From Dehalococcoidia bacterium (GTDB taxonomy: Bacteria > Chloroflexota > Dehalococcoidia > GIF9 > AB-539-J10): 64,000 nt of DNA. Shown here piece after piece: positions 19,486 to 64,000 of the stretch. The stretch is from NCBI GenBank assembly GCA_049586675.1, contig JBAVCL010000010.1, positions 1,074 to 65,073 on the forward strand, written 5' to 3'. The translations under genes were made by a program, and so were the position numbers. The notes under the pieces are model-generated. The model was not told where the DNA came from and ran no database searches. It worked only from the letters and a program-made list of their open reading frames with translations. Each line of letters opens with the position of its first letter. Position 1 is the stretch's first letter.

Positions 19486-19562
19486 GGCGCATTCGTCTAG
19501 AGGCCTAGGACACCTCCCTCTCAAGGAGGAGATCACCGGTTCAAATCCGGTATGCGCTACCA
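19486..19562 (+). tRNA. tRNA-Glu (anticodon CTC)
   Basis: Acceptor GGCGCAT/ATGCGCT, anticodon stem CCTCC/GGAGG with loop CTCTCAA, T-arm CCGG TTCAAAT CCGG, discriminator A, encoded CCA. Confidence 0.75.
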
Positions 19563-19639: not shown

Positions 19640-20365
19640 TTACATGAATTTTCTTCTCTTGAATGCTGATACATCTTCTTTCGACAGGTCGAACCATTCC
19701 CCCTGTTTCCTTTTGTCTTTAAATCTACCATGCCAGTAAGCTTCTATTCCAACTGGGTCGTCGGTTCTTATTTTATGAATCATTTCTAATTCTTCAGGAA
19801 GTTTAATACCGAGTTCATAATTACGTCTTTCTACATTTTTGCTATTGCCAATCTTGTAGAACCGCCCGGATTTCATCAAATACACAAACCCAAACTCTCC
19901 GTCGAACTCCTTGAAACCCTCTTGAGACTCTTTTGAACGTGTGCCCAAAGCATTTTTACATAATTCAATGACATCCGAGTATTCGGGATGTGTTTCACAA
20001 TAGTTAATGATTTTTGAGGCCAACTCGGGCTGTTTTCCTAATCGCTCTCTAATTGTATTGTGTGCTGGGAAGCTTTTTGTATTGTAAGCTTTCAACCGGT
20101 ATTCACCAACAGTAGGGAATTTCCCTATTTCCCTGATAAAAAGAATCATTTGTTCTATTAGCCAGTTTTCATCATAGGGGGATTGCATCTTATTCGGTGA
20201 ATATCCTGCCTCCATGACGGCATCGCTCCATCTAGTCCAATACTTGCCGTACCAATCTTGTGTTCTAATTCCTGTTTCTTTGGCAAATTTTTCTCGTCCT
20301 AATGGCATGCCATTATTCTCTTTGGCAGTTCGGTCAATTTCACTAAGAATATGATTCTTATCCAT
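19640..20365 (-). CDS. GIY-YIG / T5orf172 (MUG113-like) domain protein, putative nuclease
   Basis: C-terminal GFVYLMKSGRFYKIGNSKNVERRNYELGIKLPEELEMIHKIRTDDPVGIEAYWHGRFKDKRKQGEWFDL matches the T5orf172/GIY-YIG-like pattern; roughly 40% GC region. Confidence 0.6.
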   Translation of the reverse strand: MDKNHILSEIDRTAKENNGMPLGREKFAKETGIRTQDWYGKYWTRWSDAVMEAGYSPNKMQSPYDENWLIEQMILFIREIGKFPTVGEYRLKAYNTKSFPAHNTIRERLGKQPELASKIINYCETHPEYSDVIELCKNALGTRSKESQEGFKEFDGEFGFVYLMKSGRFYKIGNSKNVERRNYELGIKLPEELEMIHKIRTDDPVGIEAYWHGRFKDKRKQGEWFDLSKEDVSAFKRRKFM

Positions 20366-36280: not shown

Positions 36281-36622
36281 TTAGTATCTGCGCCCTCTAC
36301 CTCCTCCACCAAACCCACCACCTCTACCATACCCACCACCCCCACCACCTCTACCGTACCCACCACCCCTGCCGCCTTCGGTGCGAGGGCGTGCCTCACT
36401 AACACTGAGAGTTCGCTCTTTCAATGATGTTCCATTAAGGCCGGTGATGGCAGCCTGGGCCTCAGTTTTTGTTGGCATTTCAATAAACCCAAAACCTCGA
36501 GATTCGCCGCTGTACCTGTCCTTAATGATGTTTACCAATGTGACTTGCCCAAAAGCCTCAAACGCCTTGCGCAATTCGTCTTCGGTAACCTCGCGAGATA
36601 AATTGCCTATATATATATTCAC
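36281..36622 (-). CDS. RRM-domain glycine-rich RNA-binding protein
   Basis: MNIYIGNLSREVTEDELRKAFEAFGQV...RGFGFIEM (RNP2/RNP1) plus C-terminal GGRGGGYGRGGGGGG tail. Confidence 0.85.
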   Translation of the reverse strand: MNIYIGNLSREVTEDELRKAFEAFGQVTLVNIIKDRYSGESRGFGFIEMPTKTEAQAAITGLNGTSLKERTLSVSEARPRTEGGRGGGYGRGGGGGGYGRGGGFGGGGRGRRY

Positions 36623-39577: not shown

Positions 39578-39726
39578 ATAACTAATTTTACCATTATGCC
39601 CTTTCTTGCAAAAAATCTAGGGCTCTTTGCTTCACAAAAAGAGGCTGGTTAAATTTGATTTATACCGCTAAGTAACTATTTGTTTTTTATGGTGGTGAAA
39701 AGTTCGTTAGCAAATTCTGATGAATT

Positions 39727-39900
39727 AGGTGGTAAGCCGTGCGGGACTCGAACCCACGACACCCTAATGAAAAGTTTGGAGTATCAAAATAGAGACATTA
39801 CTATCAAGCATCAAAGATGTTCGCCGCTGGACCGCTAGAATTTACATAGAGCCTAGCATGGTAGAGTTGGTTAGGTAACAAAATGTCCTTTTGTTACTTC
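39727..39900 (-). other. Element A: about 170 nt conserved sequence ending in a tRNA-like T-arm, acceptor 3' strand and CCA (paralog of element B)
   Basis: Reverse complement ends ...GTGGG TTCGAGT CCCGC ACGGCTT A CCA; no matching 5' acceptor strand, D arm or anticodon arm found; about 85% identical to 50640-50800 over about 120 nt upstream of the tRNA-like part. Confidence 0.5.
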
Positions 39901-41078: not shown

Positions 41079-41477
41079 CTATATCCTCCATGGTGCCACA
41101 GTTCTTACCCATTTTCCCTCCTTATTATCTTTTCATGGTGAGTCCAATCACCCACCTCCAATCCATATACTTGACCACTGACCTCAGATTGGATTCAAAG
41201 TACTATTTCCCGTAGACATTATTCCTATAATTGCTATAATATCGCTAGCTGAGGAAATTGTCAATAGCTTTTGTGCGGTGTCCAAAACATATTATAGAGT
41301 CAAGGAGTCACGAAACGATACTTGTGCAATACTAAAATGGGGTGATATTTTGGGTACATAATACCTAATTTGTAGTGGGCCTCATTGGTATGGTGTCCCT
41401 AAAATTCGCGGCGTCATGGAGCCTGAAAAATAGGTGTATAATCAAGCAGATTTTGCTACCTCGTGGGGATATGAGGA

Positions 41478-50449: not shown

Positions 50450-50639
50450 CTATATCACCGGATAGACCTTTTGTCAACAATCTGTCCTGACTGGTCACAT
50501 GGGTAACACTGGATATATACAGCCACGTTTTACCAGGGCTACAAGAGGCGGCAGTGGAAAAATTTGACAGGATTTTTGAGGTGGATGATAACAAAAACTC
50601 AGATGCTAATGTTAGCAAATTCTGACGATTTAGGTAGTG

Positions 50640-50800
50640 AGCCCTACAGAATTCGAACCTGCGCCACCCCGATTAAAAGTTATGGAGTGTCAAGATAGAG
50701 ACGTTATTATCAAGCATCAAAGATGTTCGCCTTTGGGCCACTTGAATCTATGTAGGCCCTAGCATATTAGAGTTGGTTCGGTAACAAAACAAGCAGGTCC
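50640..50800 (-). other. Element B: degenerate paralog of element A with a tRNA-like 3' region
   Basis: Reverse complement ...GGTGGCGCAGG TTCGAAT TCTGTAGGGCTCACTA; shares a conserved core including ATCAAGCATCAAAGATGTTCGCC with element A. Confidence 0.45.
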
Positions 50801-53565: not shown

Positions 53566-54843
53566 TTATGCGCCAGGATTCAGGACGCGCCCGACAAAGA
53601 GAATGGCACCCGTCTCAATGTCGCGAATCAAGAAGATGAAGGGGCGGTCTATGGTGACTTCCACAGGAGGTTGAGGTGCGGCTGACCCTGCGGCAATCAC
53701 TGCGGTGGCGGCAGCAGCCTCGGTGCCAGCTTCATCCACAGAAACGAACGCCTTGTGCACAACGTCTGATATGAACAGCTCACGATTACCAGTCATTCCG
53801 GAGAAATCGGCGTCACCAGGAGAAAAGGCAATTGGCATGCCCATCCCAGCGAGGGTATCCTTCAGCCTGAACTCCGAATCAAATTCAAACTTAGGCATGG
53901 TCAGGGTGACCTGAGTAAATTGCAGACCCTTTATGGTGTCACTGACCTGCTGAGACTGAAGTCCTTGTTCAAAAGCCTGGAAGTTGCCGGACGCAGGAAG
54001 CAGAATAACCATGGAGAGTTCATCGCCATCATATAGCAGCTCAACTGCCTGGTATCCTTCCCCCTTGGCGTAGCCGAATGACTCCGTCTGCCTCATCATC
54101 GGCACTATTGCCTGCCCGCCATCAAGCAGGTAGAATGGGCCGTCTGCTGTCACTTTATCATCGAAAGGGTACTTCCAGGCGGCATTGAAGTAGATAGCAT
54201 TGGTCAGCACTAGGCGAGTCAGGGCATCAATCGCGCCTGGCGGGATAAGGTCTTTGATGCGACCTTCCGTCTGGTCACTGACCCAATCATTGATGGCGAT
54301 GCGGGACTTTTCCGTCTCTGTTGTGAAGTCTAGTATTCTCAGCCCGGCCCCGTAGTTCTCAGCCAAAACGTCCAGGAAGTTGGACAGAAACTTATAATTC
54401 TTTTGCCCCCAGATGGCGTTAACGACGTTCAGTCTGAATTTGCCTCCATCCTTACCAGCAGCACCTTCACCCCTGCTGGCAAGTTCGGCATCGAGCCAGT
54501 TAAATGCCGGGTGCAGCCTATCTTGTTCAAGCAAGAAATGAAGAGTATCAGCCATCTGCTGAGCGGTTTCGTTACGCGCTCCGGCGTATGTCATCGCCAG
54601 CGCCAGTGAGATGCTATAAGGGGAGTAGAAAAGATTACCCTCCTTCCCTTTAAGGGCCTGATAAAGCTTAAAGGCGAAGGCACTGTTTCCTTCAACCAGC
54701 AATGCTTGCTCACTCGAACTGACATCCGGTGAAGTTATGCGCTCTTTATTGGATTTGAGCAGATCGCCTGGTGCCGGCTGAGTACAGGCTATCAGCGGCA
54801 GCAGCAACACTATGACTAATACGCCTATCAGTATCTTCTTCAT
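53566..54843 (-). CDS. Serpin-family protease inhibitor, probable lipoprotein
   Basis: 425 aa; signal peptide with LIAC lipobox; serpin pattern including C-terminal FIFLIRD...GAILFVGRVLNP. Confidence 0.8.
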   Translation of the reverse strand: MKKILIGVLVIVLLLPLIACTQPAPGDLLKSNKERITSPDVSSSEQALLVEGNSAFAFKLYQALKGKEGNLFYSPYSISLALAMTYAGARNETAQQMADTLHFLLEQDRLHPAFNWLDAELASRGEGAAGKDGGKFRLNVVNAIWGQKNYKFLSNFLDVLAENYGAGLRILDFTTETEKSRIAINDWVSDQTEGRIKDLIPPGAIDALTRLVLTNAIYFNAAWKYPFDDKVTADGPFYLLDGGQAIVPMMRQTESFGYAKGEGYQAVELLYDGDELSMVILLPASGNFQAFEQGLQSQQVSDTIKGLQFTQVTLTMPKFEFDSEFRLKDTLAGMGMPIAFSPGDADFSGMTGNRELFISDVVHKAFVSVDEAGTEAAAATAVIAAGSAAPQPPVEVTIDRPFIFLIRDIETGAILFVGRVLNPGA

Positions 54844-55794: not shown

Positions 55795-55860
55795 GAATTT
55801 CAGGGACACCATACCAATCAGGCCTGCTACAAATCAGGTACTCTATCCACCGAATACCAC
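55795..55860 (+). repeat. Array repeat R1 (about 65 bp imperfect palindrome)
   Basis: GAATTTCAGGGACACCATACCAATCAGGCCTGCTACAAATCAGGTACTCTATCCACCGAATACCAC. Confidence 0.85.
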
Positions 55861-56184
55861 AAGCTGGTTAGATTTACTCGTAGTCGGGCTTAACAAAACG
55901 ATGTTTTATATAGTCGCTTGTCTCGGTCAATACAAAATAAGGAACTAAACAGAATGAATAAATGTTACACTGCACTTCGCTGGGTTAATTCAGTGCGTAT
56001 TGACAAATGCCCAGGACGGACTACAATAAAATTGTCTAACATCTGAACCGACTGCAAATTCAATAGGAGCAGGGATGAACAAGATGAAGCAGATAACAAA
56101 GATGCTGGAATCGCTAAATAGATGCGGTGGTCGGCACCTTTTTTAAGACATATTAATCTCTGCTGCTAATTAAGGAGGACTGTA

Positions 56185-56601
56185 ATGAATAAAACTGAGA
56201 TTATGGCTTTCCTAAAGGCAATCCCAATCTGTTTTCTAGCCACTACTGAAGGTAATAAGCCTCATGTCCGTGCCTTAGGGGTGTATAGAGTGGATGAGAA
56301 TGGTATTATTCTGCAGTCAGGAAAAGGGAAAGACTTACATAAGCAATTAGTCTAGAATCCTGAGGTTGAGATTTGCTTCTGCGATGCACAAAACTTTATG
56401 CAGGTAAGAGTTAGCGGCCGTATAGAGATAGTTGAAGACTTGGCACTGAAGAAGGAAATCGTTGACAAACGTCCTCATATAAAGCCAATTGTTGAACGAG
56501 TGGGGTACGACCTCATATCTGTTTATAGATTGAAAAATGGAAAGGCGACCTTTTGGTCTATTAAGGAGCCGTTGGCACCTAAGACTTATGTTGACTTATA
56601 G
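56185..56601 (+). pseudogene. Pyridoxamine 5'-phosphate oxidase-family (PNPOx-like) gene with in-frame TAG at 56353-56355
   Basis: ATG after AAGGAGG; MNKTEIMAFLKAIPICFLATTEGNKPHVRALGV...KQLV*NPEVEICFCDAQNFMQVRVSGRIEIVED...; the two halves are continuous in one frame. Confidence 0.65.
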
Positions 56602-56610
56602 CAAATGGTG

Positions 56611-56680
56611 GAATTCCAGGGACACCATACGTCAAAATTAGGCCTACCACAAAATCAGGTATTATTTTCCCCGAATACCG
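56611..56680 (+). repeat. Array repeat R2
   Basis: GAATTCCAGGGACACCATACGTCAAAATTAGGCCTACCACAAAATCAGGTATTATTTTCCCCGAATACCGC. Confidence 0.85.
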
Positions 56681-56757
56681 CAGGCGCAATGTTATATTGG
56701 TACATAAAAAGTGATCTGGGCTTCAATCTCTCCTAACACGTGTCTCTTTGATGGAAT

Positions 56758-57324
56758 CTAATCTGATTGGCGGCGTGATTCTTTTACCAGAAACAACACA
56801 AGAATAAAGCCTATCGACGCAAGTACTGCTCCCAAAAGGAATATTGTGCGGAAACCGATAATTTCTGAGAGGAAACCACCGAAGGCGGGACCTATCATCC
56901 AGCCAACGGATATCGTTTGCTGATAGACACCCATAGCCCAGCCCCTCTTATCTGCAGTGATAATGTCGGCTATGTAGGCTGTGACCGAAGCACCAATGGC
57001 GACCCAAGCAGCGCCTTCGAGGACTTGTATACCATATACCACCACATAACCTTGTGCCAGGAAATAAAGGACAAAAATTAGTGCAAAACTAGCCATCGAA
57101 CCGAGGATAATCGGTTTCCTACCAAAACGGTCTGCTGCCTTCCCCAGAAGTGGACCAAAGAGTAACCCTACCAGAGAACCAACCATATATATCAAGCCAA
57201 TCTGAGTCCTCGGTGCTCCAAGCACTTCACCCATATAGAGCGAGAACATAGAATAAACCAGACCGGAGCAAATCATCAGGGGTAGTGCACAAGCACAGAG
57301 AACATAGAGTTTTTTCTTTTCCAT
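56758..57324 (-). CDS. MFS transporter, N-terminal half only (6 TM, 188 aa; truncated)
   Basis: MFS motif A GKAADRFGRKP between TM2 and TM3; full MFS proteins are about 400 aa with 12 TM. Confidence 0.65.
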   Translation of the reverse strand: MEKKKLYVLCACALPLMICSGLVYSMFSLYMGEVLGAPRTQIGLIYMVGSLVGLLFGPLLGKAADRFGRKPIILGSMASFALIFVLYFLAQGYVVVYGIQVLEGAAWVAIGASVTAYIADIITADKRGWAMGVYQQTISVGWMIGPAFGGFLSEIIGFRTIFLLGAVLASIGFILVLFLVKESRRQSD

Positions 57325-57481
57325 AGGTCACACTCCTGAAAGTATATTTTCGGCAAAGACTGCCCGATGGGGATACCTCGTCCCCTCATACCTTTGTCCG
57401 CCATTCTATCTCTGTTCTGGCATCATTCACAAGAGTGCCGTTTGGCAATAATTCTGTAGTAGCAATTAGATAACAATCGGC

Positions 57482-57547
57482 GAATTTCAGGGATACCATA
57501 CCAATCGCGCCTGCTACAGATTAGGTATTATGTCCCCCGAATACCAC
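57482..57547 (+). repeat. Array repeat R3
   Basis: GAATTTCAGGGATACCATACCAATCGCGCCTGCTACAGATTAGGTATTATGTCCCCCGAATACCAC. Confidence 0.85.
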
Positions 57548-57627
57548 TTGCAACAAATTATAGGGCATGCTTAAATTGGAAAGTGAACAGATTATAGGAC
57601 AAAACATAAAAGGAGGTATCAATAACA

Positions 57628-58272
57628 ATGGCAACAGAAGCGTCACCAACCCCACCCGCATATCCCGCTACTCTGACAATCGACTACCCGGATAGACCGC
57701 TTAATCGGTTAACCACGTTCTTCAGGATCTTCGTAGTAATTCCAATCGCTATTATTCTGGCCTTGGTAGGTGGTGCGAACTCTAATTGGAGTGGAATGCA
57801 TGGTTGGTACTGGCTATATGGTGCAGGAGGTATCTTGTTCCTAGCAACCCTACTCATGATTCTTTTCCGGCAAAAGTACCCCAGGTGGTGGTTTGATTGG
57901 AATGTAGCATTGATTAAGTTCAGCACTCGTGTTTCCACTTATGTTGGTCTCCTTACAGATGTATACCCCTCAACTGACGAAGAGCAGGCGGTTCACATTG
58001 AGATCCCCTATCCCGACGTTCCGAAAGACCTTAACCGTTGGTTACCACTAGTGAAGTGGTTTCTAGCTATCCCACACTACATCATCCTAGCTTTCCTGGG
58101 GATTGCAGCCTTCGTTTGTGTGGTGATAGCCTGGTTTGCCATCTTGTTTACTACTCGCTATCCTAGAGGTCTATTTGACTTCGTAGTTGGTGTATACAGA
58201 TGGTCGCTGAGAGTAGCTGCATACGCTTTTTTGTTGACAACGGATCGGTATCCACTCTTCAGTCTGTCCTAG
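57628..58272 (+). CDS. DUF4389-like membrane protein
   Basis: YPATLTIDYPDRPLNRLTTFFRIFVVIPIAIIL and a second half-repeat ...LVKWFLAIPHYIILAFL; tandem DUF4389-like modules. Confidence 0.55.
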   Translation: MATEASPTPPAYPATLTIDYPDRPLNRLTTFFRIFVVIPIAIILALVGGANSNWSGMHGWYWLYGAGGILFLATLLMILFRQKYPRWWFDWNVALIKFSTRVSTYVGLLTDVYPSTDEEQAVHIEIPYPDVPKDLNRWLPLVKWFLAIPHYIILAFLGIAAFVCVVIAWFAILFTTRYPRGLFDFVVGVYRWSLRVAAYAFLLTTDRYPLFSLS

Positions 58273-58316
58273 ATTTACCCTAGCCATATTAGGGAACACG
58301 TACCTTGGGTGAATGC

Positions 58317-58383
58317 GAATTCCCGAGACACCATACCAATCAGGCCTGCTACAAATCAGGTATTATATCCCCCAAATACCGCG
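58317..58383 (+). repeat. Array repeat R4
   Basis: GAATTCCCGAGACACCATACCAATCAGGCCTGCTACAAATCAGGTATTATATCCCCCAAATACCGC. Confidence 0.85.
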
Positions 58384-58467
58384 GCATCTCACCCGCGTCT
58401 TAAACATCTGATCTCGGGCATCCCCACCCCTGTTCATCCCTTCCAAGACATTGACTAAGGTGCTACA

Positions 58468-58815
58468 ATGTTCTTAATGAATGGCTATACATTGAGAGAG
58501 GCTGCCCAGGCTTTAGGGGTCTCAATAATTACCATCCGTCGGTATATCAAGTCCGGCAAGCTCAAGGCCAGGCTAGTCCCTTCCAAGTTCGGGCCGTCAT
58601 ATATTATTGACGACTTACCCATGCTCACCAAGTCCTCATCAGATAACACCCTATCAACCCAACCGATCATCAATAGAATAGAGCAGTTATCCCAAGAGGT
58701 CGGCTACTGGAAAGCCAAAGCAGAATTACTTGAGGAACGATTATTACTTCTGGAAGCCCCTAAGCAGACCCATAAACAAAAATGGTGGCAAAGGCTATTC
58801 AGGCCTTGGCACTAA
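58468..58815 (+). CDS. Excisionase-family helix-turn-helix (HTH_17-like) DNA-binding protein with C-terminal coiled coil
   Basis: YTLREAAQALGVSIITIRRYIKSGKLKARLV matches the excisionase/MerR-type HTH pattern. Confidence 0.55.
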   Translation: MFLMNGYTLREAAQALGVSIITIRRYIKSGKLKARLVPSKFGPSYIIDDLPMLTKSSSDNTLSTQPIINRIEQLSQEVGYWKAKAELLEERLLLLEAPKQTHKQKWWQRLFRPWH

Positions 58816-59056
58816 ATAGATAAGGCTGCTCTAACCACTAACACAAAGTGAGAAAGGCTAATCCATAGCAATTACACTATGAGCTCGAATTAGAAACCAG
58901 ACCCACACTGAACGGGAGAGAGAATAGGATTTCCGACGACTTCACTGTCAGGATGGCTCACGGGAGAAGGAAATAAGATAGGATCACCCAATTGTGTGTG
59001 GGTGCGGCAAGGAGGTTTAATGCCCTTTCTCGGGCCTCTCAGGTGCCTTCTAGCGG

Positions 59057-59123
59057 GAATTCTGGTGACACCATGCTAATTTAGGCCTACTATAAATCAG
59101 GCATTATGTCCCCAGAATACCAC
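59057..59123 (+). repeat. Array repeat R5
   Basis: GAATTCTGGTGACACCATGCTAATTTAGGCCTACTATAAATCAGGCATTATGTCCCCAGAATACCAC. Confidence 0.85.
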
Positions 59124-59197
59124 AACAATTCCAGGTCATCGGTGAGCGGAAAGTTGACAGCACCATGTCAGCCGTCTAAAGTGTAAGTCAGTGAGTT

Positions 59198-60253
59198 GTG
59201 CCATGCTCACTCACTGTGCTCTTAGCGTCTATGGAACCAGGATACGTTGCGCTATACCACTCTGGCGAATTGGAACGTCGTGCTCAAGTACTCGAGGCTC
59301 GATTAGCCTCCTGCGCTATCTGCCCCAGGGAATGTCGGGCCAATAGATTACAAAACGAACTGGGCTATTGCCATTCCGGGCGCCTACCCATAGTCTCGGC
59401 AGCCTGCGCTCATCACGGTGAGGAGCCGGCTATTTCAGGAACCAGAGGGTCAGGGACAGTTTTCTTTGGCAATTGTAATATGAGATGCGTTTATTGTCAG
59501 AACTACCAGATAAGTCAGAACTGGAAAAAGCAAAAATCAAAGGAAATGGACTGCCACACCTTGGCGGAAAGGATGCTCTACCTTCAGGATGAACTGGGCT
59601 GCCACAATATCAATTTCGTTTCGCCATCTCATTTTGTTCCTCAGCTCCTGCGGGCAGTTGTGGAAGCGGTGCCCATGGGGCTTCGAGTGCCGCTGGTTTA
59701 CAACACTAGTGGTTATGATTCTGTCGCTTCTTTGAAAGAGCTTGACGGTGTCATAAGTATCTACTTGCCTGATTTGAGATATGCCTCGGACAAGTGGGCT
59801 AAGAAGTTCTCGCATGCCCCGGATTATGTAGCACGGGCTCGTCAGGCTATTAAAGAGATGTATCGACAGGTTGGAGACCTGGTGGTGGATGAATCTGGCG
59901 TGGCACAAAAAGGATTGATAGTGCGTCATCTTATTCTGCCCAACGGTCTGGCAGGCAGTGAAGAATCGCTAACCTGGCTTGTTCGGGAGCTTTCTCCCAC
60001 GGTGACGGTTAGCGTAATGTCTCAATACATGCCGATTCACCGGGCGCCGCGAATACCACTGCTTTCTCGGAAGATCACCGTTGACGAGCAGGAAACAGTC
60101 CTCAAGCTGCTAACTGACCTGGGAATAGAAAACGGCTGGGTGCAGGAAATGGGGGCAGCAGAAGAGTATCTCCCTGATTTTGAACGAGCAGGTCACCCTT
60201 TCTCCCCAGCGAATTCCCGGGATACCATACCAATCAGGCCTACTACAAATTAG
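59198..60253 (+). CDS. Radical SAM protein, PflX-like (putative glycyl-radical activating enzyme family)
   Basis: CNMRCVYC CxxxCxxC motif; PflX/COG1313-like N-terminus; last 11 codons and stop lie inside repeat R6. Confidence 0.65.
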   Translation: MPCSLTVLLASMEPGYVALYHSGELERRAQVLEARLASCAICPRECRANRLQNELGYCHSGRLPIVSAACAHHGEEPAISGTRGSGTVFFGNCNMRCVYCQNYQISQNWKKQKSKEMDCHTLAERMLYLQDELGCHNINFVSPSHFVPQLLRAVVEAVPMGLRVPLVYNTSGYDSVASLKELDGVISIYLPDLRYASDKWAKKFSHAPDYVARARQAIKEMYRQVGDLVVDESGVAQKGLIVRHLILPNGLAGSEESLTWLVRELSPTVTVSVMSQYMPIHRAPRIPLLSRKITVDEQETVLKLLTDLGIENGWVQEMGAAEEYLPDFERAGHPFSPANSRDTIPIRPTTN

Positions 60254-60275
60254 GTATTATGCCCCCAGTATACCC
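60211..60275 (+). repeat. Array repeat R6
   Basis: GAATTCCCGGGATACCATACCAATCAGGCCTACTACAAATTAGGTATTATGCCCCCAGTATACCC. Confidence 0.85.
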
Positions 60276-60345
60276 AACGATATGTTAAGATGGGTGAAAT
60301 GGACCTTCCATTGTGGCGTGATTTCAGCGATATTCTGCTCGAGGA

Positions 60346-61032
60346 ATGATCATGTCTGTAACAAGATTCATCAAGGATATACTGAGGAAATCTGAATCAA
60401 TCCCCACCCCGGGTGCCATAATCTACAATGCGACAGTGGCAATAGTTCTGCGCAAGCCTGAAACAAAGATTGCTGAGGACATAGTGGAAAAGATGGGAAG
60501 CGGGACTATTCTTGATTTAGGTTCGGGACCAGGCTATTTGTCAATAGAGATTGCCAAGAGGTCACCCAGCCTACAGATCTATGGCATAGATCTCAGCAGG
60601 CAAATGGTCAAGATTGCCAGACGCCATGCCCAAGGCGTTGATAATGCTCGATTTGTGTTTGGCAATGCGGCCAAACTCCCTTTTAAGGATAATTCCATAG
60701 ACCTTGTGATTAGTACGGGTGCTTCGCACCATTGGAAGACACCACGACTGGTGTTTGATGAATGCTATCGTGTTCTAAAAACCGGCAAGGAAGCCTGGAT
60801 ATACGACGGGTGTCCTGAGGTTTTCAACAACCCGGCTGATAGAAGAAAGGTAAACAAGGAATATGGTTTCTTCGTTGGCCGATTTGGACCTAGAGTCTCT
60901 ACACTACATGGTTTCACCAAGGAAGAATACCAGACCGAAATTAAGGATTATGTAGAGCAAACGGCATTCAAAGGCAACTACCAGATGGCGCTAACAGATA
61001 TTTGGATGAAGATTACGCTTAAGAAACGCTAG
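60346..61032 (+). CDS. Class I SAM-dependent methyltransferase
   Basis: ILDLGSGPGYLSIEIA motif I and downstream motifs (DLVISTGASHHW). Confidence 0.75.
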   Translation: MIMSVTRFIKDILRKSESIPTPGAIIYNATVAIVLRKPETKIAEDIVEKMGSGTILDLGSGPGYLSIEIAKRSPSLQIYGIDLSRQMVKIARRHAQGVDNARFVFGNAAKLPFKDNSIDLVISTGASHHWKTPRLVFDECYRVLKTGKEAWIYDGCPEVFNNPADRRKVNKEYGFFVGRFGPRVSTLHGFTKEEYQTEIKDYVEQTAFKGNYQMALTDIWMKITLKKR

Positions 61033-61035
61033 TGA

Positions 61036-61102
61036 GCAGTTCCAGGGATACCATACCAATGAAGCCTACTACGAATTAGGTATCATGTCCTCAGAATACC
61101 AT
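61036..61102 (+). repeat. Array repeat R7
   Basis: CAGTTCCAGGGATACCATACCAATGAAGCCTACTACGAATTAGGTATCATGTCCTCAGAATACCAT. Confidence 0.85.
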
Positions 61103-61149
61103 GTTGGACACTGCAAGGACACCCTGGTCGGCCGTTTTAGTACTCCCTG

Positions 61150-62652
61150 TCAGCCTTCCTTTGTCACGCTGAGTCGTCTCCGGTCTATCTGGCCCGACCC
61201 GGTTCTAGGCAGGTTGTCAACAAACTTGATTTGTTTGGGCACTTTATAATCAGATAAGCTCTGGCGACAAAAATCGCGTATTTCGTCCGCCGTAGCACTT
61301 TGTCCTTGCTTAAGCACTATGAAAGCTGTGGGAATTTGCCCTTTGTAATCATCAAGGACACCGACACAGGCTATTTCGGCTACCGCGGGATGTCTCAGCA
61401 GAACTTCTTCAACTGCCTCGGGGAGAATCTTAACTCCCCCCGAGGGCACTATGATAGATGATGTCTTTTCTATGAATTCCAGGTAGCCGTCCTCATCCAG
61501 CTTGACCAGGTCGCCAGTATAAAACCAACCATCTTTGATGACCCGGGCCGTGAGTTCAGGCGACTTGTAGTATTCTTTCATCATCCAGGGGGCTCTAGCA
61601 ACAGCTTCCCCTACGCTGCCCCGGGGTACTTCCTTGCCATTTTTATCCAGCACTCTAAGCTCAGCCAGGGGCTTCCCTGCCGTACCCAATTTGCGGTCGC
61701 GAATAGCACCTATAGTGACGATTATCAACTCCGTGAGCCCATATATTTCGCACACAGTTAAGCCAAACTTCTTCTCAAGCATCTCCATGAAAAGGGCTGA
61801 GGATTTTGCTCCGGCAGAAAGCACCGCTCTTAACGAACTGAGGTCATAGCTCTTCATCATCTCTTCGTCTATCATGGCCATGGCATTAAAGCTAGCCGGG
61901 ACGCCTATAAGCATGGTTGCTTTTTCCTGCTCTACAGTCTCCAAGATATTCTTGGAACTGAAATGAGGGAGGATTGCTATAGTGGCTCCCCTCATAACAG
62001 GCATGAGAACAACCAGCCCAAATCCCAGAAGGTAGTTAAAAGGGAGCAGACCTAACACAACATCGTCTCTCTCCAGTTCAAATTTTGCCACTGCTATGGG
62101 CAAAATTGACATGAACGACGCGTGAGTATGCACTATGCCCTTGCTCTTCCCCAGCACACCCAGGGTGTAAAAAACGATAGCTTCATCCTCGCCCTCTATA
62201 TTGACAGAGGGTGATAGAGGGGAGCTACTGGCCACAATCCCCTTATAATGGTCTGTATCAACTTCAAGGACCTGTTTCAGCAGGGGGACATTGGGCAAGA
62301 CTGAAGACAGCATGGGGGAGAATCTTTCTTCGGTAATCAGGATTTTGGAATCAGATCCACGGAGCTGAGGCTCAAGTTCGGGCACCTTAGCTCCGCTATC
62401 GAGGAGCACGCCCACAGCTCCAGCTTTAAGCACTCCAAAACAATTGATGACCCACTCAGGAGTACGAGACATTAGAATGGCTACGTGGTCGCTCTTCTTT
62501 ATCCCTAGACTCAGAAGGGCGTTGGCTATCTTGTTAGAAGTTTCATCAAATTCGCGGTAGCTAACTTTGCGAGAGCCAAGGACGATGGCCGTTTGCTGTG
62601 GCACCTCGCGGGCAGTTCTTTCTAGCATCTGCTTGAGATTCTTGAGATCCAT
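61150..62652 (-). CDS. AMP-dependent synthetase/ligase (acyl-CoA synthetase family)
   Basis: 500 aa; AMP-binding motifs (YTLGVLGKSKGIVHTH; YGLTE; GWFYTGDL). Confidence 0.85.
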   Translation of the reverse strand: MDLKNLKQMLERTAREVPQQTAIVLGSRKVSYREFDETSNKIANALLSLGIKKSDHVAILMSRTPEWVINCFGVLKAGAVGVLLDSGAKVPELEPQLRGSDSKILITEERFSPMLSSVLPNVPLLKQVLEVDTDHYKGIVASSSPLSPSVNIEGEDEAIVFYTLGVLGKSKGIVHTHASFMSILPIAVAKFELERDDVVLGLLPFNYLLGFGLVVLMPVMRGATIAILPHFSSKNILETVEQEKATMLIGVPASFNAMAMIDEEMMKSYDLSSLRAVLSAGAKSSALFMEMLEKKFGLTVCEIYGLTELIIVTIGAIRDRKLGTAGKPLAELRVLDKNGKEVPRGSVGEAVARAPWMMKEYYKSPELTARVIKDGWFYTGDLVKLDEDGYLEFIEKTSSIIVPSGGVKILPEAVEEVLLRHPAVAEIACVGVLDDYKGQIPTAFIVLKQGQSATADEIRDFCRQSLSDYKVPKQIKFVDNLPRTGSGQIDRRRLSVTKEG

Positions 62653-62718
62653 TGTCTCCCCCCAGACTTGATGAGTTTTAAGTAGGATTATGAGCTAATT
62701 TCCTATTTCCTGTCAATA

Positions 62719-62783
62719 GAATTTCAGGGATACCATATCAATCGGGCTTACTACAAATCAGGCATTATTTCCCCAAAATACTA
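62719..62783 (+). repeat. Array repeat R8
   Basis: GAATTTCAGGGATACCATATCAATCGGGCTTACTACAAATCAGGCATTATTTCCCCAAAATACTA. Confidence 0.85.
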
Positions 62784-62901
62784 AGGAATAATGCAACCTT
62801 TTTCGGCCTTCCGCGTTGTAGTAGTAATAGAAGAGACAGTGGGGAAAGTTCAGCAGATTGGACTAATAAATTTCATTGTAAAAGTGTAAAAGGAGGATAA
62901 A

Positions 62902-63675
62902 ATGAGTAACAAAAAGCTGGCAGGAATCCTAGGAAGTTGTATTGCACTTATCATCGCGATAGTAGCCATAGCTGCTCTCACACCAGCATCCGGGGAGGCG
63001 AATGAGAATACTGCATTTCACATTAATGTGATACCTGAAACGCCCGAGCTGATAAACGGAGAGTTGACTTTCAAATACTCTATTGCCGGACAGCACTTCG
63101 TATTCCTCGTGACAATTACCGATGAAGGTCAAGAAGGTCAACTTCTTGTACATATATCAGCGAAGGCTCCTGGCGTAGAAGTAGTCATTTATCAGCAGGA
63201 TATAGTTGAGGGACAAGTTGCCGAGGTGGTTGTCATACCAACACAAAAAAGCATTGGAAAAACTATTAAGGTAACTATCACTGGAAGTCAAGGTAGTCTG
63301 ACTGACAAAAAAGTTGTTAGCTTCAAAGTGGTAGAAGGTGAAGATGACAGGCAAGAATATGCCGGAGAGTTGCTAGATACATTTGTTTCCTGGCTAGCAA
63401 CGAATCATCCGGAACTCGGAATCACAGAGGATACAGCATGGAATGGCACTATGGTTAGCCCGGTATGGTTAGTTGTATCTCACTATTTTTTCTTCTCGGA
63501 GGAATGGGAGGTTCATATATCATGGCATATAATGATACCTCCATACGACTGGGCAAAGATCGACCTCCGTCATCGGTTCGACCAACTAGCGCCATCTTAC
63601 GCTTTTGAGATTTCATCAGTGAATGCTACCAGTGAGCCTATACCGACAGAAGTGCCAGAGACAGTTTGGCGTTAA
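62902..63675 (+). CDS. Hypothetical signal-anchored extracytoplasmic protein
   Basis: N-terminal hydrophobic segment LAGILGSCIALIIAIVAIAAL, then soluble domain with no recognised family; GGAGG RBS. Confidence 0.5.
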   Translation: MSNKKLAGILGSCIALIIAIVAIAALTPASGEANENTAFHINVIPETPELINGELTFKYSIAGQHFVFLVTITDEGQEGQLLVHISAKAPGVEVVIYQQDIVEGQVAEVVVIPTQKSIGKTIKVTITGSQGSLTDKKVVSFKVVEGEDDRQEYAGELLDTFVSWLATNHPELGITEDTAWNGTMVSPVWLVVSHYFFFSEEWEVHISWHIMIPPYDWAKIDLRHRFDQLAPSYAFEISSVNATSEPIPTEVPETVWR

Positions 63676-63679
63676 ACTG

Positions 63680-63746
63680 GAAATCCCAGGGACACCACAC
63701 CAATTAGGTCTACTATAAATTAGGTATCATGTCCCCAGAATACCCT
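63680..63746 (+). repeat. Array repeat R9
   Basis: GAAATCCCAGGGACACCACACCAATTAGGTCTACTATAAATTAGGTATCATGTCCCCAGAATACCCT. Confidence 0.85.
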
Positions 63747-64000
63747 GAACCCTGTTCAAAACGACGCAGGTAATCTCGTCCGCCCCTGGCTGGAGAAGCC
63801 GATTTTTTGAAAACTCAGGTGATTGCTTTATACTATTCTATGATCGATATAGCGATGACAGTATAGACGACTCGGGAATGTTACCTTGGGCGACAGGGAT
63901 TTAGAACTGCTGGAATTTCACAAGATACGGTAGCAACTGACTGCCGCGATTTTGTTAATCCGCTCACTCTGAGGCGGGCTAGCCATTTACAGAATGTTGG

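Follow-up and report, generated by a model that had tools for sequence, protein, structure and literature searches.

The locus examined here raises the question of what a 64-nt imperfect palindrome can be that stands nine times on the same strand, between single genes, within the last part of the window (the whole stretch of DNA analysed, 64 kb in length). To our knowledge integrons are alone among the well-understood platforms in capturing and shuffling genes one at a time, and their recognition relies on their integrase, IntI, and on the grammar of their attC sites. The repeat was followed through the window and through related genomes, with regard to its sequence, the genes that it separates, its folding and the enzymes encoded in its neighbourhood.

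The repeat and its copies in the window

The copy under study, R3, reads GAATTTC-A-GGGATACC-ATACC...GGTAT-TA-TGTCCC-CC-GAATACC, and the consensus of the 64-nt repeat, GAATTCCAGGGACACCATACCAATYAGGCCTRCTACAAATYAGGTATTATGTCCCCAGAATACC, is a sharply bounded imperfect palindrome. The arms are complementary in a single ungapped register, in which position i pairs with position 64-i, and form an outer helix (GAATTY/GAATAC), a helix of 6 bp (GGGAYA/TRTCCC) and a helix of 5 bp (ATACC/GGTAT) around a loop of 21 nt. Pairing of the 5' and 3' arms, with outer arms that extend the imperfect palindrome, had been proposed in the initial annotation; this complementarity was seen in one register, and the family lies far above chance, each half of the repeat having 9-10 matches in the window against 1-2 expected, a number reached in 0 of 100 shuffles. 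A loop containing AATCAGG twice had also been described. The length of about 21 nt was confirmed and AATYAGG does occur twice in the consensus (positions 22-28 and 38-44, the second overlapping the inner helix), whereas in R3 itself both motifs are degenerate (AATCGCG and GATTAGG). Reading of the sequence also showed inverted GGTATT/AATACC half-sites about 10 bp apart in each arm.

Nine co-oriented copies occupy positions 55795-63744 with a spacing of 741-1687 bp, and one solo inverted copy is found at 41344-41407, that is, 9 copies within 8 kb and 1 in the remaining 56 kb. The copies are the following:

R1, 55795..55858, + strand: first copy of the array; 5' arm and loop as in the consensus, 3' arm degenerate (GGTACTCTATCCACC)
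R2, 56611..56679, + strand: loop region with 5 additional bases
R3, 57482..57545, + strand: copy under study, third of the nine same-strand copies of the array
R4, 58317..58380, + strand: repeat copy
R5, 59057..59121, + strand: repeat copy with a 1-base insertion
R6, 60211..60274, + strand: overlaps the final 43 nt of the radical-SAM ORF 59198-60253
R7, 61037..61100, + strand: begins 5 nt past the stop codon of ORF 60346-61032
R8, 62719..62782, + strand: repeat copy
R9, 63681..63744, + strand: final copy before the window end
Solo copy, 41344..41407, - strand: core-genome context; flanked by an Exo_endo_phos gene on one side and a Crp-type regulator on the other, rpoD being the next gene downstream

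The 3' arm of R7, previously given as TGTCCC, is in fact TGTCCT. The end of the radical-SAM ORF inside R6 (60211-60253) has its last codons and its stop supplied by the repeat. The array extends past the end of the window and probably continues beyond R9; a search past position 64000 by means of the protein of the last cassette retrieved only a contig of 3.7 kb.

Occurrence and conservation in other genomes

The family was sampled by scanning a single genome of each species for exact patterns, which gave more than 111 stretches, and by a scan of metagenomes, which gave 120 more. The context DNA consisted of MAG and metagenome contigs, in tiles of at most 8 kb for the genomes and in stretches of up to about 15 kb for the metagenomes. 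A profile search found 605 copies in about 231-232 genome and metagenome stretches, mostly of Dehalococcoidia. Almost all the stretches from the genome scan belonged to Dehalococcoidia MAGs, and the few from bins of other phyla were mostly short contigs. Copies were seen in bins of WOR-3, Stahlbacteria, Brocadiaceae, Planctomycetota and Fermentibacteria (L011, L035, L057, L062, L071 and others), and these could be due to mis-binning or to transfer between phyla. No copy was present in viral contigs, phage records or plasmid records.

Adjacent copies were co-oriented in 367 of 369 cases (191/192 and 176/177) and inverted in the other 2, and the median distance between them was 1065 bp. The information content was 1.3-1.8 bits within the 64 nt, loop included, and about 0 just outside, the 40 nt on either side holding no more than 0.12 bit per position. 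The loop measured 21 nt in nearly all copies and was conserved to the same extent as the stems (1.4-1.8 bits), with the exception of positions 25, 32 and 41.

The family is star-like, the identity of copies being 0.866 within an array against 0.861 for random pairs and 0.872 for adjacent pairs, and no identical adjacent pair was found within arrays. A target-duplication model, in which a repeat would be copied at each insertion in the manner of CRISPR arrays, was rejected since adjacent repeats are never identical and differ nearly as much as random ones; the same values led to the rejection of homogenisation within genomes. Orthologous repeats with flanks of about 98% identity differed at about 10% of their positions, chiefly by transitions, and thus diverged about five times faster than the mostly coding flanks. 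Pairs with flanks of 99-100% identity had identical repeats, and therefore neither a special process nor an assembly error is necessary to account for the differences. Hypermutation of the repeat was likewise rejected, the rate being close to that of near-neutral non-coding DNA beside constrained coding flanks. We interpret these data as showing that each copy drifts almost neutrally about a consensus which is itself under selection.

The cassettes and their cargo

The array of the window carries one gene per spacer, as listed below:

Cassette 1, 55859..56610, + strand: ORF reading 56185-56601 with an in-frame TAG near 56352, PNPOx-like by eye; promoter-like site at 56000
Cassette 2, 56680..57481, - strand: MFS transporter, N-terminal half only, 188 aa (56758-57324)
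Cassette 3, 57546..58316, + strand: DUF4389 membrane protein (57628-58272); homologous cassette in L031, L069 and L063
Cassette 4, 58381..59056, + strand: predicted HTH_17/excisionase-like DNA-binding protein of 115 aa (58468-58815); homologous cassette in L034 and L056
Cassette 5, 59122..60210, + strand: radical-SAM protein (59198-60253); homologous cassette in L091 and L093, 93-94% identity
Cassette 6, 60275..61036, + strand: SAM methyltransferase (60346-61032); homologous cassette in L031, L098, L053 and L071
Cassette 7, 61101..62718, - strand: AMP-binding enzyme (61150-62652) with its own promoter-like site; homologous cassette in L052, L053 and L015
Cassette 8, 62783..63680, + strand: protein of 257 aa, no Pfam match (62902-63675); homologous cassette in L093, L048 and L111

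Cassettes 1 and 2 carry damaged genes, which shows that the content of a cassette is not always an intact gene. The product of cassette 4 had been put forward as a candidate partner of the repeats on account of its excisionase-like character; it has only a weak HTH_17 match and is encoded in an ordinary cassette found elsewhere too, with no tie to the repeats, and this role is not retained. Across genomes the cargo includes Fic and HicB proteins, nucleotidyltransferases, restriction-modification methylases, methyltransferases, hydrolases, a sigma-70 paralogue and proteins of unknown type, a range such as integron cassettes typically carry.

A dominant ORF was present in 157 cassettes and was oriented + in 90 and - in 67 of them, with the repeats co-oriented throughout, and several cassettes have promoter-like sites of their own. 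The strict polarity is therefore a property of the DNA sites and not of transcription units.

A sigma-70 family protein of 490 aa is a recurrent cargo (L021 2338-3813, L032 6260-7729, L049 416-1885, L073 487-1962), and its gene shares only about 67-70% DNA identity with rpoD of the window. A sigma-70 context as explanation for the solo copy was rejected, the sigma genes that stand between repeats elsewhere being a separate, cassette-borne paralogue.

Mobility and behaviour of the junctions

The cassettes of the window recur in other MAGs at 85-94% identity and in different order, and the matches end at the repeats. Pairs of repeats with homologous flanks numbered 650 for the upstream side and 604 for the downstream side, and only 21 for both sides. 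In the aligned junctions homology was lost exactly at core position 64. Moreover, 17 cases were found in which one genome has the arrangement A-R-C and another A-R-(B-R)n-C, and the inserted or deleted unit was a cassette together with a repeat, never a repeat alone. The repeats are thus the points at which independent modules meet, and in its behaviour the array resembles that of integron cassettes, devoid of an adjacent integrase.

Two kinds of incomplete site were also encountered. In L001 (5585-5636) and L019 (99-148 and 3120-3173) a repeat truncated near position 54 is joined directly to the 16-nt start of another; the junction of this recurrent composite reads …TATTTCTC/GAATTCCAGGGACACC/CCAAAC…, the downstream sequence being common and the upstream flanks different, and its appearance is that of an exchange in which GAATAC and GAATTC, two outer boxes of similar sequence, took part. 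In L056 (1467-1508), L044 (1191-1229) and L102 (1807-1845) repeats truncated at about positions 37-41 have one downstream sequence in common (G[A/C]TTGAAGATTNGTTA…) and unrelated DNA before them, and this hybrid site seems to have switched upstream partners.

Position of the crossover

The cleanest insertion/deletion is that of L049 and L032, the flanks of which are 98.7% identical. The single repeat keeps the rare variants of the repeat on the upstream side through position 43, which places this crossover at positions 44-64, in the 3' third. This one case matches the polarity of attC, where the crossover lies inside R' at the 3' end and a cassette consists of a gene and its downstream site. 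The other insertion/deletion cases gave mosaic or conflicting intervals, which are also expected from homologous exchange.

In the identity profiles only positions 57-64 clearly track the downstream flank, and positions 1-16 track the upstream flank. Rare variants at positions 4-62 are almost never common to copies that share either flank; as copies drift, rare variants of the core become unlinked to the flanks, and with them the statistical power to locate the crossover is lost. The identity profiles hinted at a switch near positions 40-45, which was judged unreliable on the same ground. Truncated copies mostly retain the 5' part of the repeat and end at many different positions.

Folding, strand and covariation

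The initial annotation had regarded the + strand as the structured one, with G.U-compatible variation as its mark, and had made this strand-specific hairpin depend on covariation exceeding the conservation of the primary sequence. The covariation set consisted of 80 copies that had not been used as search bait, compared with shuffles. On the + strand 74.7% of the cells were paired (74.6% in shuffles), the covariation score was 0.112 in both, and pairs with double changes numbered 9 against 9.2 expected; RNAalifold predicted no + strand structure. The helix of the - strand had 86.8% of its cells paired, equal to shuffles. The long stem of 18 pairs exhibited no covariation on either strand beyond column composition; it is conserved as sequence, which by the standard set in the initial annotation counts against the strand-specific hairpin.

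The stem pairs comprised 2801 Watson-Crick cells, 679 A.C and 148 G.T, so that G.T is not enriched on the + strand and cannot serve as its mark. Most of the A.C cells come from the conserved oppositions 7/57, 8/56 and 15/49, and elsewhere A.C (176) is about as frequent as G.T (145). On the - strand these three C.A oppositions are G.T wobbles, their variants being mostly Watson-Crick, which makes the - strand the better folder; the asymmetry that exists in the paired fractions quoted above favours the - strand too, contrary to the earlier assignment. At the pair 13/51 the 214 copies examined contained CG 155 times, CT 25, CA 14 and TG 10 times, and T is present at position 13 in 4 of the 9 copies of the window array.

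With DNA parameters the consensus folds at -7.8 (+) and -9.5 (-) kcal/mol (z -2.8 and -3.7), and with RNA parameters at -16.7 (+) and -25.5 (-) kcal/mol (z -3.6 and -3.9). The real copies as single-stranded DNA are weak hairpins of -3 to -7.5 kcal/mol, and the individual copies of the window fold in this form no better than shuffles (z -1.1 to +0.7). When the stability of the two strands was compared over 447 copies, the - strand had the advantage in 349 with DNA parameters and in 427 with RNA parameters. After correction for composition, on 120 copies, the difference between + and - strand was small, the mean z being -1.52 and -1.76 (DNA) or -2.45 and -2.77 (RNA). GC skew is dominated here by gene orientation, and its use for recognising the replication strand was discarded as uninformative.

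Within the loop one pair does covary, in agreement with folding of the - strand: positions 32 and 41, which close a small hairpin of the form CCTR-8 nt-YAGG. On the - strand this pair is GC in 31 copies, GU in 24, AU in 20 and AC in 2, values reached in 0 of 500 shuffles, and the association is also found on 230 copies (Fisher p = 6e-7). Polymorphic sites without any pairing relation are associated as well, and the structure of subfamilies may contribute to the covariation at 32/41.

Search for a recombinase

No recombinase is encoded in the 64-kb window. No integrase was found at the head of an array either: the ORF upstream of the array in the window (53566-54843) is a serpin, and in other genomes about 45 upstream ends of arrays, as well as the downstream ends, adjoin housekeeping or cargo genes, for instance argG, argD, dtd and fur on the downstream side. 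Scans for tyrosine-recombinase motifs and with phmmer over about 1.4 Mb of context revealed only two such enzymes, in L092 and L137, both generic, one of phage type and one Xer-like beside a putative tRNA gene; they scored 81 and 46 bits against a cut-off of 265 bits for integron integrases. IntI was found neither in the window nor in the approximately 1.4 Mb, which is made up of short-stretch loci in which a distal integrase could have been missed.

In L137 (4241-6513) a truncated repeat lies about 1.1 kb from the Xer-like tyrosine recombinase, which scores below all curated cut-offs; the flank beside the recombinase gene, when translated, resembles a read-through tRNA gene.

Proposed explanation

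The observations from which we start are the architecture of the array, the independence of the flanks at every repeat, the recurrence of cassettes in different order and the sharp edges of the site. With a confidence slightly better than even, we take the 64-nt repeat, which in the chromosomes of Dehalococcoidia forms co-oriented arrays and bounds gene cassettes that move one by one, for a recombination site acted upon by a recombinase in trans. Copies in direct repeat would recombine by means of an enzyme encoded elsewhere in the genome, and cassettes of one gene each would in this way be excised, inserted and brought into new order, much as happens in an integron array that has no neighbouring integrase. 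The exchange would be site-specific rather than homologous, and the dyad symmetry could serve either a recombinase dimer or a folded single strand. If a single strand does fold, it should be the - strand, the complement of the one considered in the initial annotation.

Comparison with integron arrays

The nearest known arrangement is that of integron attC sites in clusters without integrase, or CALIN (PMC4889954), which share with the present arrays co-oriented imperfect palindromes of about 60 nt, a spacing of about 1 kb, one gene per unit, cassettes that recur elsewhere in different order, a cargo of accessory, toxin-antitoxin and restriction-modification genes, and the lack of an adjacent integrase. 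In both, co-oriented sites bound single-gene cassettes that move independently, and the better-folding strand is the complement of the commoner ORF strand, which in the present case is a weak majority (90:67). The attC-like recombination site suggested at the outset is therefore upheld at the level of the array, where units are co-oriented, about 1 kb long, contain one gene each and have flanks that recombine independently; it is upheld neither as membership of attC nor in its reasoning from covariation and strand.

The grammar of the site is different. The R''/R' boxes of attC contain a conserved AAC...GTT triplet (PMC4889954), whereas the consensus of the repeat (300-605 copies) is without AAC or GTT on either strand and has GAATTC(C) and GAATAC(C) as outer boxes. 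Canonical R boxes hidden outside the core were considered and rejected, the flanks being uninformative and GTT/AAC not enriched in the 40 nt on each side. In attC the L box contains extrahelical bases, while the repeat has only symmetric 2x2 or 1x1 mismatches and no bulged consensus base. The attC palindrome extends over 57-141 nt, a range that includes the 64 nt of the repeat, and has two helices and an unpaired spacer, the consensus of the repeat folding into outer, middle and inner helices. The loop of attC varies from 20 to 100 nt in length and also in sequence; the repeat has a conserved loop of 21 nt, and, unlike attC, is conserved across species over its whole length. A common orientation of the cassette ORFs, a feature of attC arrays (PMC9668308), is absent here, as the ratio given above indicates.

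Alternative explanations

That the repeats are nevertheless genuine attC sites, the folded bottom strands of which are recombined by IntI, an integrase with an extra domain, from a gene at another place in these genomes, would agree with the architecture and the cargo, with the length of 64 nt, which is within the attC range, with the better folding of the - strand and with the one insertion/deletion that puts the crossover in the 3' third. There are reports of integrons from Chloroflexi/Chloroflexota, and attC clusters that lack an integrase are frequent; in half of these the genome itself is without IntI (PMC4889954, PMC9668308). The explanation is considered quite improbable in view of the missing AAC/GTT triplet, with nothing conserved outside the core, the symmetric 2x2 internal loops free of extrahelical bases, the loop fixed at 21 nt and conserved at stem level, the mixed orientation of the ORFs, several of which have their own promoter-like sites, and the failure to find IntI in the 1.4 Mb examined. 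A selfish or neutral dispersed palindrome of the REP or MITE kind, with a mosaic arising from homologous recombination or transformation-mediated exchange between 64-bp repeats and no dedicated recombinase, deserves more weight, and we regard it as unlikely rather than remote. The absence of a recombinase nearby, the solo copies in core-genome contexts, the star-like family with within-array identity hardly above that of random pairs, the rare core variants linked to neither flank, the mosaic crossover intervals and the scattered truncation points are all in its favour. Random insertion would, however, give both orientations, and not the almost complete co-orientation that is found; all 64 positions, including the loop, are conserved across many species with very sharp edges; the copies stand between single genes at about 1 kb in arrays and not genome-wide; and repeats of 64 bp that have diverged by about 14% are poor substrates for RecA-type exchange. 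REP/BIME elements, which depend on RAYT transposases, resemble the repeat in being extragenic palindromes, often just past stop codons, with possible strand-specific hairpins and an enzyme encoded at a distance. REPs, however, are 20-40 nt long, scattered genome-wide and commonly in inverted pairs, and do not form the boundaries of shuffled cassettes, whereas the repeat is 64 nt, arrayed and inverted in only 2 of 369 adjacent pairs. The arms of the repeat could be viewed as the terminal inverted repeats of a MITE; such an element would also have a target-site duplication, none of which was seen by eye at the copies of the window, and would be present or absent by itself at orthologous sites, where the insertions/deletions found here comprise a cassette as well.

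Two further explanations address the palindrome rather than the mobility. A double-stranded site for a dimeric regulator or nucleoid protein, the dyad of which only incidentally allows a hairpin, would suit the conservation of every position at sequence level, loop included, the inverted GGTATT/AATACC half-sites in each arm and the stems without covariation; it leaves unexplained the mobility of the cassettes, the independence of the flanks and the strict co-orientation of a nearly symmetric site. As a complete account it is very improbable, though it becomes compatible with the recombination site proposed above if the binder is the recombinase itself. The least probable explanation is a structured RNA element, involved in processing, stability or antisense action and transcribed from one strand. 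The consensus does fold well with RNA parameters, especially as the - strand, on which G.U-type oppositions are conserved, and one pair (32/41) covaries; on the other hand the 18-pair stem does not, neither a U tract nor a promoter is found in fixed register, and the recombination of flanks at the repeat would have no explanation. The small RNA that had been offered as an alternative in the initial annotation is disfavoured by the independence of repeat and gene orientation and by the lack of any matching Rfam family: with Rfam 15 the matches in the window at gathering score were tRNAs only, and at a repeat the best match of any family reached 20 bits against a gathering score of 48 bits (E = 0.42).

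Xer-dependent modules offer a further comparison, as they too are gene modules bounded by short recombination sites and served by a housekeeping tyrosine recombinase in trans. The pdif sites of Acinetobacter plasmids are 28 bp long (11-6-11), and their orientation changes from one site to the next. Single-stranded DNA in folded form is also a possible substrate of Xer enzymes, as in the case of CTX phage, which is among the elements that integrate at dif. On reading the 64-nt site no dif-like 11-6-11 core was evident. Altogether the agreement with integrase-less integron arrays is closer than that with REP elements, MITEs, Xer modules or Rfam families.

Significance

The array represents mobile single-gene cassettes common to several species, with defence, toxin-antitoxin and metabolic cargo. 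It is tempting to speculate, although we hold it rather less than probable, that Chloroflexota possess a second, independently evolved system of gene-cassette capture, with the architecture and population behaviour of integrons, a different site grammar and a non-IntI enzyme in trans. Its grammar would be the EcoRI-like GAATTC/GAATAC outer box and a conserved loop with tandem AATYAGG, devoid of AAC/GTT, and candidates for its enzyme would be, among others, a tyrosine recombinase of the Xer type or a single-strand nuclease of the HUH type, for which the folded - strand would be the substrate. Such a system would be invisible to the existing integron finders. If a different enzyme does serve the array, gene-cassette systems are more diverse than current tools show, and a testable mechanism would be provided for the flow of accessory genes in Dehalococcoidia, an abundant group of the subsurface and of sediments. 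Even if the repeats were a divergent attC cluster, their hundreds of natural variants would show what a cassette recombination site must conserve.

Other features of the window

Two paralogous non-coding elements of about 180 nt, at 39706-39883 and 50611-50789 (both - strand), are 80% identical and have long invariant blocks. They contain a segment GGTTCGA(G/A)T similar to a tRNA T-arm, the flanking bases of which differ in a manner that looked compensatory by eye. Neither was called as tRNA or tmRNA, and Rfam gave no match at E<=1 for the first and none at whole-window gathering score for the second; they may represent an undescribed small RNA. A protein with a T5orf172/MUG113 (GIY-YIG-like nuclease) domain is encoded at 19640-20365 (- strand), about 80 nt downstream of tRNA-Glu (19486-19562), and a glycine-rich ORF at 36281-36622 (- strand) contains a CCACC-rich repeat with a period of 9 nt (36294-36373).
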